Virus record (IMG/VR): IMGVR_UViG_3300005466_000024
Span: 32,001-96,000 of that record
Length of the DNA: 64,000 bases
Strand: one strand, 5' to 3'
Source: a virus
Shown: positions 26,629 through 49,360 of the stretch, one piece after another
Layout: the number at the start of each line of letters is the position of its first letter
Numbering within the stretch: the first letter of the stretch is position 1
Program-made: the position numbers and the translations under genes
Notes under the pieces: generated by a model
Database searches by the model: none
What the model was told of the DNA's origin: nothing
Seen by the model: the letters and a program-made list of their open reading frames with translations, nothing else

Positions 26629-27605
26629 CGGGGCCACTGCGATCCCCAGCTGATGGCCGGTGCCGCCGGGTAGAACCGCCACGCGCGGACAGCCGATGCG
26701 TAAGTTCCGCTGACGAACAGACCACGGGCGCCGCCGCCGTAGATGCCGCCGGCCACCAGCAGTGAGCCGCGTCCCATGCCGAGCAGTTTGCGCTTGGCCA
26801 TCTTGACCATCTTGACCCACTCCGGATATTCCTGGGCCAGGATTTGCGCCCACCGCTGCGAGTAGGCGGTGCGGTCGGTGTAGGTGACGTTCATGTTGGG
26901 GCGGGCCGGGATTTCGACGTAGGAGTCGCGCAGATGCCGGATCACCTCCAGGTAGGTGCCGACCACCTCGAGGCCCGCGAAGCTCGACGGTGGCGGGTTG
27001 GTGAGGTTCCAGTCCATGACGGGGAAGCCGGTGACGCTCATCCGGGTGGTGGCGATGCCCATCAGTTGGCTGATGCGTTCGCTGTCGAAGTGGGTTTGGA
27101 ACTCGTCCATCAGGTGGGGGCCACCCTCGGCGCTGTCGTAGAGATCGCCGAACATCCAGTTGACCTGCTCGACGACGAGCTTGTGCGCGTCGTCGAGGGT
27201 GTCGTAGATCGGCATCTGGTTGAGCACCTGCAGGTGGTCCAGGAAGGTCAGCAGCGTGCCGTTGACCTGGTAGGTCCATTGGGCGGTGAGCACGCCGCGC
27301 TGTCCGGTGAACTGGGGGCCGATCGGCATGTCGTACATGCCGGTGTCGACCCGGTTGATGCCGTCGGTGGTGTCGAGTACCAGGGTGCCCAGTGGGTCGT
27401 TGGTGGGTTGTACCTCCAGGGTGGGGTCCAGGTAGTACAGCTGGACGCGCAGGGTGCCGGGGTCGGCGTCCACCGCGGTGCCGTCGGGTTTGCGGATGTT
27501 CAGGGCGATGTATCCGTACCCGTTTTGGGATACGAATTTCCGCACCACGGATTGATCTTTGATCTTGGGAGAAAACACACCGATCCCAGACGGCTCAATT
27601 GCCAT
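26625..27605 (-). CDS. Head-to-tail adaptor/neck protein
   Basis: Position between head decoration genes and the stopper-like gene; helical C-half. Confidence 0.55.
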   Translation of the reverse strand: MAIEPSGIGVFSPKIKDQSVVRKFVSQNGYGYIALNIRKPDGTAVDADPGTLRVQLYYLDPTLEVQPTNDPLGTLVLDTTDGINRVDTGMYDMPIGPQFTGQRGVLTAQWTYQVNGTLLTFLDHLQVLNQMPIYDTLDDAHKLVVEQVNWMFGDLYDSAEGGPHLMDEFQTHFDSERISQLMGIATTRMSVTGFPVMDWNLTNPPPSSFAGLEVVGTYLEVIRHLRDSYVEIPARPNMNVTYTDRTAYSQRWAQILAQEYPEWVKMVKMAKRKLLGMGRGSLLVAGGIYGGGARGLFVSGTYASAVRAWRFYPAAPAISWGSQWPR

Positions 27606-43596: not shown

Positions 43597-46026
43597 CTAA
43601 TCCCATTCCGGTGTGACACCCGTCACGTATTCGTATTGTTCTGCCAGTTCCCGTGCGATATCCGCCGACTCGCGTGCCTGCCCGGCCATAATGGCAGGCC
43701 AGTCGGCCTGGAGCTGGGATTCGTGCGGCGAGTTCAGCAGGGCGTAGAACCCGGGATCGTGCACGAGATCCTCCATGCGGGGGACGGGATGGCGGGCGAT
43801 GACCTCGCGACGGCGCACCGCGTCGGTGACGCGTTGTTCGGAGGCGCGCCGCGCGCTGCCGTAGGAACTCGGCCCGCGTTCGAACTGGCTCAGTTTGCGG
43901 GTGTGCCCGTTGGTGGCGGCGGCGCGGGGGGCACCGGCGCGCAGGTCGTCGGACTCCTCGGGGCGCGCCCGATTGCGCGCCACCTCCACGGGAGGTGGCG
44001 CTGCCCCGAGCGGGGGCATGCCCGGCCCACCTGGGGGCGGGCCACCGGCCTGATCGTCCTCCATTCCCGGCGGTGGGGGTGGCGGCATCGGCACGGTGCC
44101 GGGTAGCAGTCCCAGCTGGCCGGCGGGACTCATCTGCGCGGCCTGCTGTTCCATCTGCTTCTGCTGGGTTTCCATCAGGTCGGTTTGGGCGAGCTGTTGG
44201 CGCAGCACCAGGGTCTGGGTCAGCCATTGGGCCAGTTCGGCCGGGTACGGCAGTTCCTTCTGGTCGATGATCTTCTGGGCCTTGGACATGGCCTCGGCCT
44301 CGGCGACCAGCTTGTCGACCTTCTCGTTGCCCTGGCGCACCAGTTCCTGGTCGAATTGCACCGGCAGGTTGACTGCCATGGTTTTGTCGGAAATCGGAAT
44401 CCCCATCTGCTTCAACTGGGTGATGAACGCCCGCTCTGTTTGTTCGTCCCGCAAATTCAGCGAGGAGAATCGGATTTCGGGGATCAGCAGCTTGGGCGCA
44501 CGCACCACCCTTTTCTCCCCGGTCTCCGGATCCTCTTCGATGACCTCACGGTACAAGGGGCGCCGCACCCCACCCTTGAGTTCGTAGTCGAAGTGCTCCT
44601 GGGCCTCGGCGATGACCTCCATCCGCTTGCGGATGTGCTGGACGACCTTGCGTTGGAAGCCCTTCATCAGCAGCTCGCACACCTCGCGGTTGAGGGCGGA
44701 GGAGGCGTAGGTGCCCGCCGCGGCGGTGCCGCCCATCACCAGCGCCGACCCGATCCCCCATGCCTGCATCAATTTCATGTCGATGCGTTCGTAGTCCTGA
44801 TCGAAGCGCGGCACCGCTTCGCGGCCGAACACCGGTTGGATCTGCAGCCCGAAGTGATGGCACATCAGCTTGAAGTCGGCGGCCAGCGCGGACTGGAAGT
44901 CGTCGCGCAGATCATCGAGTTCGCTTTGGTCGGGGATCCATGGTTCGCCGTCGCCCATGTCCTGGATGCCGAGGGTGGCCAGGATCAGCGGGCTGTAGAG
45001 CCGGTCGGCCACCGAGTCCTGGGCGGCGTTCAGGCTCTCCTCCATCAGCAGGGTGCCGAACGAGCGCATCAGGAACGGGGTGCCCCGCAAGTCCCAGGGG
45101 CTGGTCTTGTTGACGATGCGACTCCACAGGGCCTCGGAGATGTCCAGGCCGTCGTCCTGGGTGGCCGCGGAGATGACCTCCGGATAGTGCTTGACCAGCT
45201 GCTGGTACTCCCAGGTGCGTTCCTGGCGTTCGCTGTGCGATTCCTCGCCCAGCGCCATGCCCTGCGGGCCGGCGCGCAGCGATTCGACCATGTCCTTGAC
45301 CAGCAGCTGCACCCGCTCCTCGGTGACGAACAGGCTCTTGGAGACTCGCACCATGTCGGGGTTGAGGATCTCCTCGGAGCTCCAGATGCCCAGCTCCTCG
45401 TTGAAGTGCGCCAGCGAGGTCACCTCGCCGCTGATGTAGTACTCCCGGCCCAGGCATTCGGGCAGCCATTCCTCGTAGTTGAGCTGGTTGAGGAACATGT
45501 CGGAGTAGAAGTTCTCGATCTGCGGATCCTTGGACACGAATTCCAGGCCGGTGAGCGGGAAGCGGGCGTAGATGTCGATGAGCAGCGGCACCAGGTCGTG
45601 GATGCAGTAGAACAGTCGACTCCAGGCCCGGGCCTCCGACAGCTGTTTGGGGTCGGCGATGTCCAGTGGGATGCCCTTGTCCTGCAGCGACATTCCGGGG
45701 GTGCGTATCTTGGGCAGGGCCATGGTCAAATCGGAACCGGTGCGGCGCAGCCCTCCGGTACGCGCCGCGTTGGCCAATCGGGAGCGGCGCATCTGTGCGC
45801 GCACTGTGCGGGTATTCTCCGACAGCGCCCCGGGGGTGTTGACCATGCCCTCGACCTGTTTGGCGGTGATGCGGGCCTGCACCGGGGACTGGGGCAGGCC
45901 GGGGTAGCCGGCGGCTTTGAGCCGGCGCAGTTCGGTGTCGAAGCCGCCCGTCACCAGTCCCGACGAACTGCGGCTGACGCCGCGCCGATCGGTGACGCTA
46001 AATCCTCGAGGGCCTGGGGCTGTCAC
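43597..46026 (-). CDS. Portal protein
   Basis: 809 aa; WSRLFY...LIDIYARFPL, ILNPDMV, RGTPFLMRSF..L..EESL..AQ..VADRLYSPL, Pro-rich C-tail; lies in the head module. Confidence 0.8.
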   Translation of the reverse strand: MTAPGPRGFSVTDRRGVSRSSSGLVTGGFDTELRRLKAAGYPGLPQSPVQARITAKQVEGMVNTPGALSENTRTVRAQMRRSRLANAARTGGLRRTGSDLTMALPKIRTPGMSLQDKGIPLDIADPKQLSEARAWSRLFYCIHDLVPLLIDIYARFPLTGLEFVSKDPQIENFYSDMFLNQLNYEEWLPECLGREYYISGEVTSLAHFNEELGIWSSEEILNPDMVRVSKSLFVTEERVQLLVKDMVESLRAGPQGMALGEESHSERQERTWEYQQLVKHYPEVISAATQDDGLDISEALWSRIVNKTSPWDLRGTPFLMRSFGTLLMEESLNAAQDSVADRLYSPLILATLGIQDMGDGEPWIPDQSELDDLRDDFQSALAADFKLMCHHFGLQIQPVFGREAVPRFDQDYERIDMKLMQAWGIGSALVMGGTAAAGTYASSALNREVCELLMKGFQRKVVQHIRKRMEVIAEAQEHFDYELKGGVRRPLYREVIEEDPETGEKRVVRAPKLLIPEIRFSSLNLRDEQTERAFITQLKQMGIPISDKTMAVNLPVQFDQELVRQGNEKVDKLVAEAEAMSKAQKIIDQKELPYPAELAQWLTQTLVLRQQLAQTDLMETQQKQMEQQAAQMSPAGQLGLLPGTVPMPPPPPPGMEDDQAGGPPPGGPGMPPLGAAPPPVEVARNRARPEESDDLRAGAPRAAATNGHTRKLSQFERGPSSYGSARRASEQRVTDAVRRREVIARHPVPRMEDLVHDPGFYALLNSPHESQLQADWPAIMAGQARESADIARELAEQYEYVTGVTPEWD

Positions 46027-46050: not shown

Positions 46051-46428
46051 CTATGAGATTCCTCCAGCGACATCGCTTGTGATTTGCCGGAGGCATATCT
46101 CCGTATACCATGCCTCATCTGGTACTTCTGGATATGCCTTCTCTATTAGAGCCACCTTGAATGACGGATAGATCAGCGAACCCCCATCTTCCAAGGAAAA
46201 GCTGATATCCCTGACGACGCCGGTCCCTTCGTAGAGCAGCCCGGCCAACCGGCACTCGACCTGATCACCCGGTCGAAACGGAACGGTTCGCATCAAAAAT
46301 CCCAATGCGCGGGCCACACTGGGGCCGGGCAGCTGCGCCACGCATCCCACGCAGTACTCCAGCCCGCGAGAGTCGGTGCGCACGACTTCGGCGACCTTCC
46401 TGCAGTTGGTGCACAGCCCGACGGTCAT
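46051..46428 (-). CDS. Hypothetical protein with N-terminal Cys motif
   Basis: LCTNCRK...YCVGC; ATGA coupling. Confidence 0.6.
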   Translation of the reverse strand: MTVGLCTNCRKVAEVVRTDSRGLEYCVGCVAQLPGPSVARALGFLMRTVPFRPGDQVECRLAGLLYEGTGVVRDISFSLEDGGSLIYPSFKVALIEKAYPEVPDEAWYTEICLRQITSDVAGGIS

Positions 46429-46892
46429 GTCTGCCGGGGTCGGCCGGGGTGCAGTACCCGTTCGGTCCACCGCTGGTTGCGGTCGCGCTGGTGCCAGTCG
46501 CGCGGGGGTGGTTTCTTCTCGGCGTTGGGGACGGGCGGGTGGTGGTGGGGCCAGTCGTCCTCGGTCTCGTCGTCTTCCGTCGACTCCCCTTGCTTGGCGA
46601 TGATTACCCCTCTCCGTACGGGCACCTCGCGGCAGATGATCTTTTCCAGTGCGGCTTCCCGGCCGTCCCCGCCAGTGCCGATGACGTACGAATTCCATTG
46701 GTTACCGCATTTACACCGATGGAAGCCACCTGGAGTGTCGAATTCCTGTCCGCAATCGCAGGCGAACTTTTCGGCCGCCGTGGTGATGTATCCGTTTAGA
46801 AAGTGGTCGAAGTCCCATCCCGCGACCTTGCGGTGCGCGGGGCCCCATCCCCATTCCGCGCCCGCTACGCGCGGGCGCGTCCGGCTTTTGGG
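46425..46892 (-). CDS. Start-less -1 frame extension of 46865..49360 (Cys-rich zinc-ribbon-like domain)
   Basis: The frame reads RVAGAEWGWGPAHRKVAGWDFDHFLNGYITTAAEKFACDCG...RCKCGNQWNSYVIG; no ATG/GTG/TTG until 46625. Confidence 0.65.
   Translation of the reverse strand, partial: PKSRTRPRVAGAEWGWGPAHRKVAGWDFDHFLNGYITTAAEKFACDCGQEFDTPGGFHRCKCGNQWNSYVIGTGGDGREAALEKIICREVPVRRGVIIAKQGESTEDDETEDDWPHHHPPVPNAEKKPPPRDWHQRDRNQRWTERVLHPGRPRQT
46857..46892 (-). other. Candidate -1 programmed frameshift signal (CCCAAAA, 6-nt spacer, 9-bp GC hairpin)
   Basis: C CCA AAA in phase at 46892-46886; stem CGCGCCCGC/GCGGGCGCG at 46879-46857. Confidence 0.65.
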
Positions 46893-49360
46893 TCGTCCCC
46901 GCCCCGCTTCCGCTGGTCCTGCGCACCGAACAGGTGCTGGCGCAGCTGGGACTTGGCCCGCTCCCCGACGCCCCGCTCGTTGGCGAATGCTTCGATGTCG
47001 CTCTCTCCGCCACGCGGTGCGCCGGGTGATTTGTCCACCCAGTCGTAGTAGTCGTCGATGACGCCACTGGTGCGTTGAGTGTCCGGGCCGCCCTCTTTCC
47101 GGACCGCCCCATCATCTTTTGGGCGCCCACCTCGTTTCGCGGCCCGTGCCGGGCCTTGCGGCATTGTCTCCACAGCGGCCATCGCCGGCTGCGGCGTATG
47201 CCCGACCGCCTTGTACCACTTGTCGTGCGAGAACCGGTCGTTGTCGGCCTTGAACATGTCGGCCAGGCCCTCGGCCAGCGGCCCCTTGTGTTCTGGTGGT
47301 AGCCCGGCGACCAGCTTGGCCATCTGCACGTAGTGCTTGCGGCTCATCGCCATGGCGACCATCTCGCGCAGTGATGCGGCGAGCTGCTGCGGGTCCGGGG
47401 GCGCGGCTCCCTGATCTGCGGCGGCGGGAGGCGCAGCAGCCGGGCCCGACTGGTCCGCAGCGGCCGGTGGTGGGGCACCGCCACCGGCCTGCGCCATCCC
47501 CGCGGGTGGCTGCGGCAGCACGTTGACCGTGCCCGCCGGCGGCTGCACGTTCAGCGGGTTGGCGGCCTGCATGGCCTGCTCCTCTTGCTGGACGATCTGC
47601 AGGGCCTGCTGCAGGGCGCCCACGCCCTGCTGGAATTCCTCGGCCTTCTGGTTGAGCAGCTGGGTCAGCGCCTCGTCGGCCTTCTGCAGGTAGTCGGGGG
47701 CGGCGGTACGCCGACCGGCTCCGATTTGATGGTGGGGGTTGTTGGTGGTCCAGCCAGGTCGCCCACGCCTGTTCCACTCCTCCGCGCTCAGCCCCTGCTG
47801 TACCCAGTCCGGATCCTGATGGCGAGGGTGTCCCGGGTGGTCCTCCGACTGCTCGGCGCTGTGTCGCGATGCCAGGTAACCCTGGCCGGTACCGAACTCC
47901 TCTGCCCCCACCGCGTCGGGCGCCTTGGGGTGCTTGTTGCGTCGTGCCGGGTCGGGGTTGCGCACCTGGCCGGGTGGTAGACCCACGATCGCGCCGTGAC
48001 CCTCACCCTCGCGCCGGGAGGCGGGTTTCTTCTTGCGGGGCTGATCGGTCTTGCGTCGCAGCGCAGCGAGCACCGTGTAGTACTCCCGGTCGGGACGTTT
48101 GGCCGCCCACACCTCCAGGGAGTCCACCGACGGACGTACCCGGCGTTGTGCACACCAGGCCGCGAACTTAGCCGCGGACTTGGCGAAGTCGGTGTCGGCG
48201 GGATCCCCGGTGTGTTCGGTGACCGGGGACTCGGTGTCGATGAACCGGTCCCGGACCTTCTCCCGGGCGCCCTGGTCGATACGGTCGAGGTAGCCCTTGA
48301 AGTCGCCCTCGGGGATCAGGTCGCCCTTCGACGGCCGGAAGGTCACGTCGTTGTTCATCGCCGGACCGGTCTTGTCGGCGACCCGTGATTCCTTCTCCTT
48401 GTGGTACTTGCGGGCGTGTTCCTCGTTCTCGTGGCAGCCGGGCCAGCAGGCGACACGGGCCGCCTTCGGTCGGCTCATGTCCTCGATCTTGTCGCAGGTT
48501 CCGGGGTGCTTGCCGTGCACCGACGGCATGTTGCACACCGACTTGGCGTCGTTGAGGTCTTTTTCGGTGCCGACTGGGAAGCTGCCGTGTGGTCCTGCGA
48601 AGGGGCCGGATTCCTTGGCCACGTCGCCGTCGCCGCGGTAGCTCTCGGCTTGATGTCGGCTGGACTGTTTGTCCTGGAAGTTGCGTAGCGGTTCGCCCTT
48701 GCGGCGGCGGCCGTCCTCGACCTGGTGGTAGATCTTGCCGCAGTACGCGTCGGGATCGGCGGCGTTGCTGTTCTGTCTGGTGCAGTCCTCCCAGCCGGAG
48801 TAGCCCGCGAACGGGCCGTGCAGCCGGTCGCTGTCGGCATTCTTGCGGGAGGCATCGTGGTGCAGTCGCGACGGATCGACCGATTGCACGATGCTTCCTG
48901 CCGGTGTCTTGCCGGGCCCCTGAATGTCGCTGGGGATCCCCGGCGCATAGGCGCCGGTACCGGTGCCGGCCTGAGCCTGCTCGTCGGCTCCCCCCATGGT
49001 CATCCCCGGTGCTGGCACACCGGGTCCCCCGAACGGGCTGTCGACGCTCAGGCCTCCGGAGGGGCTGCTGGGGTCCACGTCGGCCCCCAGCTTGGCCCGG
49101 AACTCGGCTTCCAGTGGCTTGAGGACGCGCCGGATCACCCCGGATCGCGGGAACACGTGCGGGGTCATGGTGCGGATGGCGTCGTCGCGGATCAGCGCCA
49201 GCCGGTCCCGGTATTCCTCGAGGTCCCTGGCCGCGAACAGAAACGACCCGAACCGTTCGCGGACGTCGTACACGGCAGCGGCCAGCTGGTTGGCGGCCTC
49301 GCGCTGCTGGTACTTGATTTCGCTGTCCGACGCCACCAGGTTCTCGAACATGCCGCTCAT
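46865..49360 (-). CDS. Large internal head/scaffold-like protein
   Basis: 831 aa, modular and low-complexity, with many R/K/H-x-A motifs; lies upstream of the portal gene. Confidence 0.6.
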   Translation of the reverse strand: MSGMFENLVASDSEIKYQQREAANQLAAAVYDVRERFGSFLFAARDLEEYRDRLALIRDDAIRTMTPHVFPRSGVIRRVLKPLEAEFRAKLGADVDPSSPSGGLSVDSPFGGPGVPAPGMTMGGADEQAQAGTGTGAYAPGIPSDIQGPGKTPAGSIVQSVDPSRLHHDASRKNADSDRLHGPFAGYSGWEDCTRQNSNAADPDAYCGKIYHQVEDGRRRKGEPLRNFQDKQSSRHQAESYRGDGDVAKESGPFAGPHGSFPVGTEKDLNDAKSVCNMPSVHGKHPGTCDKIEDMSRPKAARVACWPGCHENEEHARKYHKEKESRVADKTGPAMNNDVTFRPSKGDLIPEGDFKGYLDRIDQGAREKVRDRFIDTESPVTEHTGDPADTDFAKSAAKFAAWCAQRRVRPSVDSLEVWAAKRPDREYYTVLAALRRKTDQPRKKKPASRREGEGHGAIVGLPPGQVRNPDPARRNKHPKAPDAVGAEEFGTGQGYLASRHSAEQSEDHPGHPRHQDPDWVQQGLSAEEWNRRGRPGWTTNNPHHQIGAGRRTAAPDYLQKADEALTQLLNQKAEEFQQGVGALQQALQIVQQEEQAMQAANPLNVQPPAGTVNVLPQPPAGMAQAGGGAPPPAAADQSGPAAAPPAAADQGAAPPDPQQLAASLREMVAMAMSRKHYVQMAKLVAGLPPEHKGPLAEGLADMFKADNDRFSHDKWYKAVGHTPQPAMAAVETMPQGPARAAKRGGRPKDDGAVRKEGGPDTQRTSGVIDDYYDWVDKSPGAPRGGESDIEAFANERGVGERAKSQLRQHLFGAQDQRKRGGDDPKAGRARA

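Follow-up and report, generated by a model that had tools for sequence, protein, structure and literature searches.

Known −1 extensions of phage structural proteins include those of T3/T7 gene 10A/10B, of the major head protein of Lactobacillus phage A2 and of Listeria phages A118/A500 (Atkins et al. 2016, PMC5009743). Ig-like C-terminal extensions are reached through a −1 shift, through a +1 shift or in frame in different phages, and this variety has been ascribed to domains that moved and whose expression was then selected for (PMC5009743). Annotated frameshifts in SEA-PHAGES genomes nearly all belong to the tail assembly chaperone (PRFect paper, PMC10885494).

The locus analysed here lies in a 64-kb stretch of DNA (64,000 nucleotides, hereafter the window) from a large uncultured actinobacterial phage. 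The gene is a member of the phrog_2922 family, which belongs to large actinobacterial myoviruses; its two reading frames, the slippery heptamer and the hairpin are all on the minus strand. A reading of this DNA made from its letters alone (the sequence-only reading) had put forward two isoforms, with and without a Cys-rich C-terminus, made through a −1 frameshift. This proposal is supported by comparative evidence, by an independent contig (L028), by family homology and by the absence of start codons, and we consider it very probable that a programmed −1 ribosomal frameshift yields isoforms of 831 and 978 aa.

As with the extensions of the T7-type, A2 and Listeria phages, a slip in the last part of a virion-module gene would add a folded C-terminal domain to some of the molecules, and as in the general picture drawn for phages (PMC5009743) the phrog_2922 family is fused, split or frameshifted among relatives. 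Unlike the cases described there, the phrog_2922 gene adjoins the portal gene rather than coat or tail genes, and the appended module is a predicted four-Cys beta-rich one with no Pfam match, Ig families included, and no convincing PDB match. The locus is like the tail assembly chaperone pair G/GT in that an X XXY YYZ heptamer precedes the 0-frame stop by a few codons and the two products would begin with the same N-terminal part. It differs in that it does not lie between the major tail and tape measure genes, has no chaperone homology, and has a far larger gene and extension; identity with G/GT was ruled out, the phrog_2922 gene being flanked by lysis genes on one side and by the portal gene on the other.

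The closest cultured counterparts are Phrappuccino gp44, Catera/Bxz1-type gp87, E3 gp68-gp70 and Finch gp12/gp13, which are of the same family and have the same synteny. In these isolates the Cys domain is either in frame (Phrappuccino and cluster C) or encoded by separate genes (E3, Finch), and none of those examined uses a slippery site. We found no description of a frameshift in the phrog_2922 gene family in the literature covered, which leaves out many subscription papers; that the isolates examined are fused or split would explain why a frameshift went unnoticed. The kind of mechanism is known in phages, and what appears to be new is the gene family, with recurrence of the arrangement in several lineages.

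The slip site and the downstream hairpin

The 0-frame ORF (49360..46865, minus strand) encodes the short isoform of 831 aa and ends ...GGG GAC GAC CCA AAA GCC GGA CGC GCC CGC GCG TAG. Read as GAC CCA AAA, the codons put C CCA AAA (46892..46886, minus) into the phase of a canonical X XXY YYZ heptamer, and six sense codons separate the heptamer from the stop TAG (46867-46865, minus); the sequence-only reading had placed it just there. Pro824 and Lys825 are the last residues common to both products. The frameshift of Lactobacillus phage A2 reportedly uses the same heptamer.

A 6-nt spacer, GCCGGA (46885..46880, minus), separates the heptamer from a predicted stimulatory hairpin (46857..46879, minus) with a 9-bp all-G+C stem and a 5-nt loop. 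The hairpin consists of the 5′ arm CGCGCCCGC (46879..46871, minus), the loop GCGUA (46870..46866, minus) and the 3′ arm GCGGGCGCG (46865..46857, minus). The UAG stop runs across it, U and A being the final two bases of the loop and G the first base of the 3′ arm, so that the earlier description of the spacer, of a perfect stem and of a stop at the junction of loop and 3′ arm is correct to the base. Folding prediction gives −20.6 kcal/mol for the hairpin alone (z = −3.6), with 1 of 200 dinucleotide shuffles equally stable, and the same hairpin is the predicted minimum-energy structure in 73-nt and 106-nt contexts. The classic −1 signal has a stable structure 5–9 nt past the heptamer, and the hairpin predicted here stands at 6 nt. 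As an intrinsic terminator the hairpin was rejected: no U tract follows the stem and the terminator scan makes no call. A search against Rfam gave only a sub-threshold chance match to the cobalamin riboswitch.

To translate the 831-aa gene, ribosomes would pass C CCA AAA and pause there, with the hairpin 6 nt downstream acting as a stimulator. A fraction of them would slip back by one base, the P-site tRNA-Pro moving from CCA to CCC and the A-site tRNA-Lys from AAA to AAA, and would add 153 more residues in the −1 frame, giving a long isoform with the four-Cys domain (residues 1–825 plus 153, or 978 aa). Ribosomes that do not slip would meet the stop six codons later and release the 831-aa isoform. 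We infer both the occurrence of slippage and the role of the hairpin. The predicted junction of the long isoform is ...GGDDPK|SRTRPRVAGAEW..., the new part beginning SRTRPRV, and is the same as that predicted earlier.

A count over 42 likely genes of the window, 18,683 codons in all, gave 44 in-phase heptamers of the XXXYYYZ form, and in only 7 of these is Y A or T. For the 82-codon overlap, in which a −1 slip would connect both open frames, the expected number is about 0.2 for heptamers of every type together and 0.03 for those with Y = A or T. When the whole window was scanned for heptamers that open into long −1 ORFs, spurious ORFs of high G+C content dominated the output, and the scan was set aside. 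An in-phase CCCAAAA is found in another likely gene of the window, at about 27522-27528 (minus); it may be the first candidate to which the heading of the sequence-only reading alludes. A further in-phase C CCA AAA is present in the same gene at 47116-47122 (minus), 77 codons upstream of the slip site. A −1 slip at this upstream heptamer would be read CCC AAA AGA TGA, running into UGA after one codon and leaving a truncated product of about 750 residues; inspection by eye showed no hairpin at the spacing expected of such a signal, and this heptamer is probably due to chance.

The −1 frame extension and its protein family

The extension (46425..46892, minus) comprises 155 codons, from CCC at 46892 up to the stop TGA (46427-46425, minus), in agreement with the earlier estimate of about 155. 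The −1 frame as a whole is open from 47111 and covers 228 codons. Within it no ATG, GTG or TTG occurs from 47111 until a GTG at 46625, which is the 90th codon past the slip site and lies downstream of the Cys motifs; the stretch of about 90 codons said to lack a start therefore measures 89. Neither CTG nor ATH is present between the slip site and a conserved WGWG motif, and no promoter-like site for a free extension product was found. The −1 ORF goes on beyond the 0-frame stop, lacks its own initiation site and encodes a real protein.

That protein is recognized by the phrog_2922 profile (length 1,237), which matches the 0-frame protein at profile positions 582–735 (E = 8e-55) and the −1 extension at positions 925–1022 (E = 1.4e-23). 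The 831-aa product represents the N-terminal and central part of a protein of this family. Because the matches follow each other in the two frames, the frames correspond to successive parts of one protein. A tblastn search with the extension returned 223 phage records (Mycobacterium cluster C phages, Phrappuccino, Gordonia and Rhodococcus phages). Both parts are in one frame in Phrappuccino gp44 (779 aa) and Catera gp87 (1,120 aa), with which the 0-frame N-terminus also aligns. At the nucleotide level, the 3.4-kb region had no megablast match in the phage collection. Conserved across the family are the N-terminal ~90 residues, a PEGDFKGYLD block and a Q-rich helical block (...YLQKA...LLNQKAEEFQ...); the remainder of the 831-aa protein is a low-complexity linker.

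The extension is followed by a DUF7245 gene (125 aa; 46428..46051, minus; E = 1e-35), whose ATG overlaps the TGA of the extension as ATGA, and then by the portal protein gene (809 aa; 46026..43597, minus; phrog_2833, 1058 bits). The order phrog_2922 gene, DUF7245 gene, portal gene is common to Phrappuccino, Catera, E3 and Finch, with DUF7245 missing from the Catera annotation. Judging by coordinates, the 4-nt stop/start overlap is also present between Phrappuccino gp44 and gp45, and the −1 ORF thus ends where a real gene ends. The profile match together with the synteny with DUF7245 and portal genes places the gene in the phrog_2922 family. Its product is probably a virion component, of the head or proximal to the portal; the internal head protein of the sequence-only reading is a putative role, drawn from synteny with the portal gene and from the annotation of Rhodococcus phage E3 gp70 as a structural protein.

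The metagenome scan yielded an independent copy of the locus, the 3,024-nt contig L028 from a different metagenome sample (Ga0207663). L028 and the window differ by 84 substitutions over 3,024 nt and are 97.2% identical. The single indel between the two is intergenic, after the DUF7245 stop, and the coding sequence has none; heptamer, spacer, hairpin and frame break are identical. Thirteen substitutions fall in the extension, and they are distributed over codon positions 1, 2 and 3 of the −1 frame as 1, 1 and 11. Nine codons are changed synonymously and three non-synonymously, while in either other frame the same substitutions are mostly non-synonymous. Upstream of the first possible start, 5 of 6 substitutions are synonymous in the −1 frame. 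Given this third-position bias, and with the break present in both strains, the extension has been under selection at the protein level since the strains diverged, and the −1 frame is therefore subject to purifying selection.

The part of the extension that is conserved in relatives is a four-Cys beta-rich domain (46593..46832, minus; extension residues ~21–100) with CxCG-12-CxCG and WNSYxIG motifs, in which the CDCG...CKCG motifs of the sequence-only reading appear as described. Nine residues (F43, C45, C47, G48, C60, C62, G63, N67 and S68) are invariant in 41 sequences and all nine are present in the window, the invariant pattern being F-x-C-x-C-G ... C-x-C-G-x-x-W-N-S-Y. C45, C47, C60 and C62, invariant throughout, form the four-Cys arrangement of two knuckles, and on their account zinc binding may reasonably be proposed. 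AlphaFold2, run with the 41-sequence alignment, predicts a beta-rich fold with block-mean pLDDT >90 for residues 21–70. Searches with the domain gave no Pfam family, Ig included, and no match to PDB sequence profiles. With the predicted structure, nothing convincing, and no known zinc-ribbon fold, was found by Foldseek against the PDB (best E = 0.8) or by a VIA wide structure search (best Z = 3.6), and the ESM Atlas returned only zinc-finger-like clusters at chance-level scores of 0.82–0.83. The long isoform would also carry a conserved basic tail.

Fused, split and frameshifted relatives

About 50 further loci were collected from IMG/VR, metagenomes and one MAG contig, and both halves of the protein were mapped on them by tblastn. 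A single extension protein used as a query found no relative among viral contigs; relatives were found with an alignment query. The scan of genome contigs gave one locus only, L052. The sequence-only reading had asked whether homologues keep the frame break or are fused. Most turned out to be in-frame fusions, which make up about 20 distinct lineages, but not all are, some keeping −1 breaks with heptamers; the case it had named against itself, with every homologue fused and no slippery site, thus does not apply. Other relatives are split. In L004, GGGAGGG is followed by an ATG two bases past the upstream stop, and the Rhodococcus phages have annotated separate genes, gp12/gp13 in Finch and gp68, gp69 and gp70 in E3.

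Five lineages, that of the window and L028 included, are broken by a −1 shift; each overlap contains a single in-phase heptamer, 1–6 codons before the stop. In L021/L022, two assemblies that differ at 4 of 4,479 positions (99.9% identical), C CCT TTA stands one codon before UGA and no start codon occurs for 74 codons; folding gave no convincing structure downstream of the L021 heptamer. L046 has C CCT TTA, a 6-nt spacer and a GC hairpin of 6 bp that closes a 5-nt loop, with the UAG placed as in the window. An ATG lies 27 codons into its −1 ORF, which could therefore be a separate gene. L050 and L052 have C CCA AAA at the same site, with different stops (UGA and UAA) and hairpins 6–7 nt downstream. 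They share 57% amino-acid identity downstream of the heptamer and almost no nucleotide similarity upstream of it, nucleotide conservation starting at the heptamer itself. The break and its signal are thus kept in an independent relative, L028, and have analogues in L021/L022, L046, L050 and L052.

A fused sister of L050, L016 (SH-aLRT 100 in the domain tree), reads in frame through the L050 slip position as ...ARPQSRGRTAS... and has no slippery site at the aligned junction. Relative to L016 (position 1952), L050 has an extra 1-nt gap at position 2531, which is non-slippery and shifts the frame in the N-terminal half; it may be a contig error or a second frame break. Because of this gap the L050 contig may contain errors and taken alone is weak evidence, while its heptamer site is confirmed by L052. 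In the domain tree, a quick one of 93 columns in which deep branches are weak, frameshifted lineages lie dispersed between fused ones.

The position of the slip site varies. In the window and L021 it is directly ahead of a WxGWG motif; in L046 it is ~245 residues upstream of the Cys domain. In L050 and L052 it is immediately followed by an additional conserved four-Cys module (LGxC-x3-CGKPAEG ... C-R-x-C-AER; L050:3142-3380, L052:3007-3245) that precedes the shared Cys domain. L021 and L046 have 15 identical nucleotides around the heptamer, and to judge from these the two sites may share an origin; allowing for this, there are at least three types of site, represented by the window, by L021/L046 and by L050/L052. 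It is quite possible, though somewhat less likely than not, that frameshifting evolved recurrently within this one gene family, at no fewer than three sites in variable linkers among fused and split relatives.

Alternative readings and further C-terminal variety

Were the assembled sequence one base short in its CCC or AAAA run, the gene would really be fused, as most homologues are. The break does lie at short homopolymers, slippery heptamers being pairs of homopolymers, where indel errors also arise, and L050 carries its additional non-slippery gap. Such an error is extremely improbable, however, in view of L028, which keeps the break despite 84 substitutions and has no coding indel over 3 kb, and of the pairs L021/L022 and L050/L052, which repeat their breaks in separate assemblies; nor would an error come with a 9-bp hairpin at 6 nt. 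A true 1-nt deletion may instead have become fixed and truncated the protein, leaving the Cys domain as an untranslated, decaying remnant. Frame breaks of this kind occur in long genes of metagenomic phages, and the 831-aa product retains all the N-terminal conserved blocks. This is very improbable for a sequence in which 11 of 13 substitutions relative to L028 are in third positions and synonymously changed codons outnumber non-synonymous ones by 9 to 3, in which the invariant residues of the domain are all intact, and whose open frame reaches precisely as far as the ATGA junction with DUF7245.

The two remaining alternatives accept that the Cys domain is made. It could be produced separately, through initiation of its own or through termination-reinitiation at a non-canonical start codon, as in the genuine two-gene forms of L004, Finch gp12/gp13 and E3 gp68-gp70. 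Here this is very improbable: no ATG, GTG or TTG is available from 47111 to 46625, no CTG or ATH from the slip site to WGWG, and nothing promoter-like was seen, and L021 likewise has no start for 74 codons. RNA polymerase could, on the other hand, add an A within AAAA, so that some mRNAs encode the fusion. Productive transcriptional slippage needs about seven or more identical bases, and the runs are of only four A here and of three T in the lineages of L021 and L046; what is conserved is the heptamer's phase, together with a hairpin at the distance suited to ribosomes. We therefore give this possibility hardly any chance, although it would make the same two products and is known in bacteria and phages at long A/T runs (PMC5009743).

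With programmed −1 ribosomal frameshifting as the preferred reading, the relatives bear on what the two isoforms would do. Some have the long form only and others two separate proteins, so the Cys domain seems to work both tethered and free; a frameshift would supply a mixture. Since most family members are simple fusions, two isoforms are not required across the family. Recurrent evolution of frameshifting, if it did take place, would mean that selection has favoured a fixed proportion between copies of a portal-proximal virion protein that have a previously undescribed four-Cys fold and copies that lack it, and would make the family a natural system in which to watch fused, split and recoded states interconvert. 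Having fused, split, insertion-interrupted and frameshifted forms, this one family offers material on how recoding signals arise after indels. For actinobacteriophages it would provide a second well-supported class of recoding, in a virion-module gene, beside that of tail assembly chaperones. Gene callers would truncate such a protein and either miss the Cys domain or call it as an orphan ORF. Several short orphan calls among the homologues in the protein database (P0004-P0008), one of them on a 34.8-kb contig, may be of this kind.

Several relatives carry other changes around the Cys domain. In L007/L033, which represent one contig, the family gene is interrupted by an insert of ~720 nt (L033:2535-3257), apparently of lower G+C content, with a Cys-rich ORF of its own that starts right after the upstream stop. 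The insert looks like a mobile gene, possibly a homing endonuclease. In L012 (positions 17–1378) the Cys domain is followed by an in-frame segment with a GGxFNPPHxGH motif, which we take to resemble a nucleotidyltransferase motif. The phrog_2922 family accepts varied C-terminal additions.

The genes of phage E3 show two further peculiarities. C CCT TTC stands in phase in the N-terminal homologue gp68 (L026:3460-3483), four codons short of the gp68 stop, and gp69 is in the −1 frame relative to gp68, with a GTGA stop/start overlap; this could reflect translational coupling or an additional slip site. A +1 break in L026/E3 was ruled out, the annotation giving three separate genes. The Cys domain of E3 is in gp70 (L053:5899-9058), the annotated structural protein. 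RefSeq has gp70 as a pseudo misc_feature whose length, 3,160 nt, cannot be divided by three, and the frame of its Cys domain is open into gp71. Past the Cys domain the frame may be faulty, or a further recoding event may take place.
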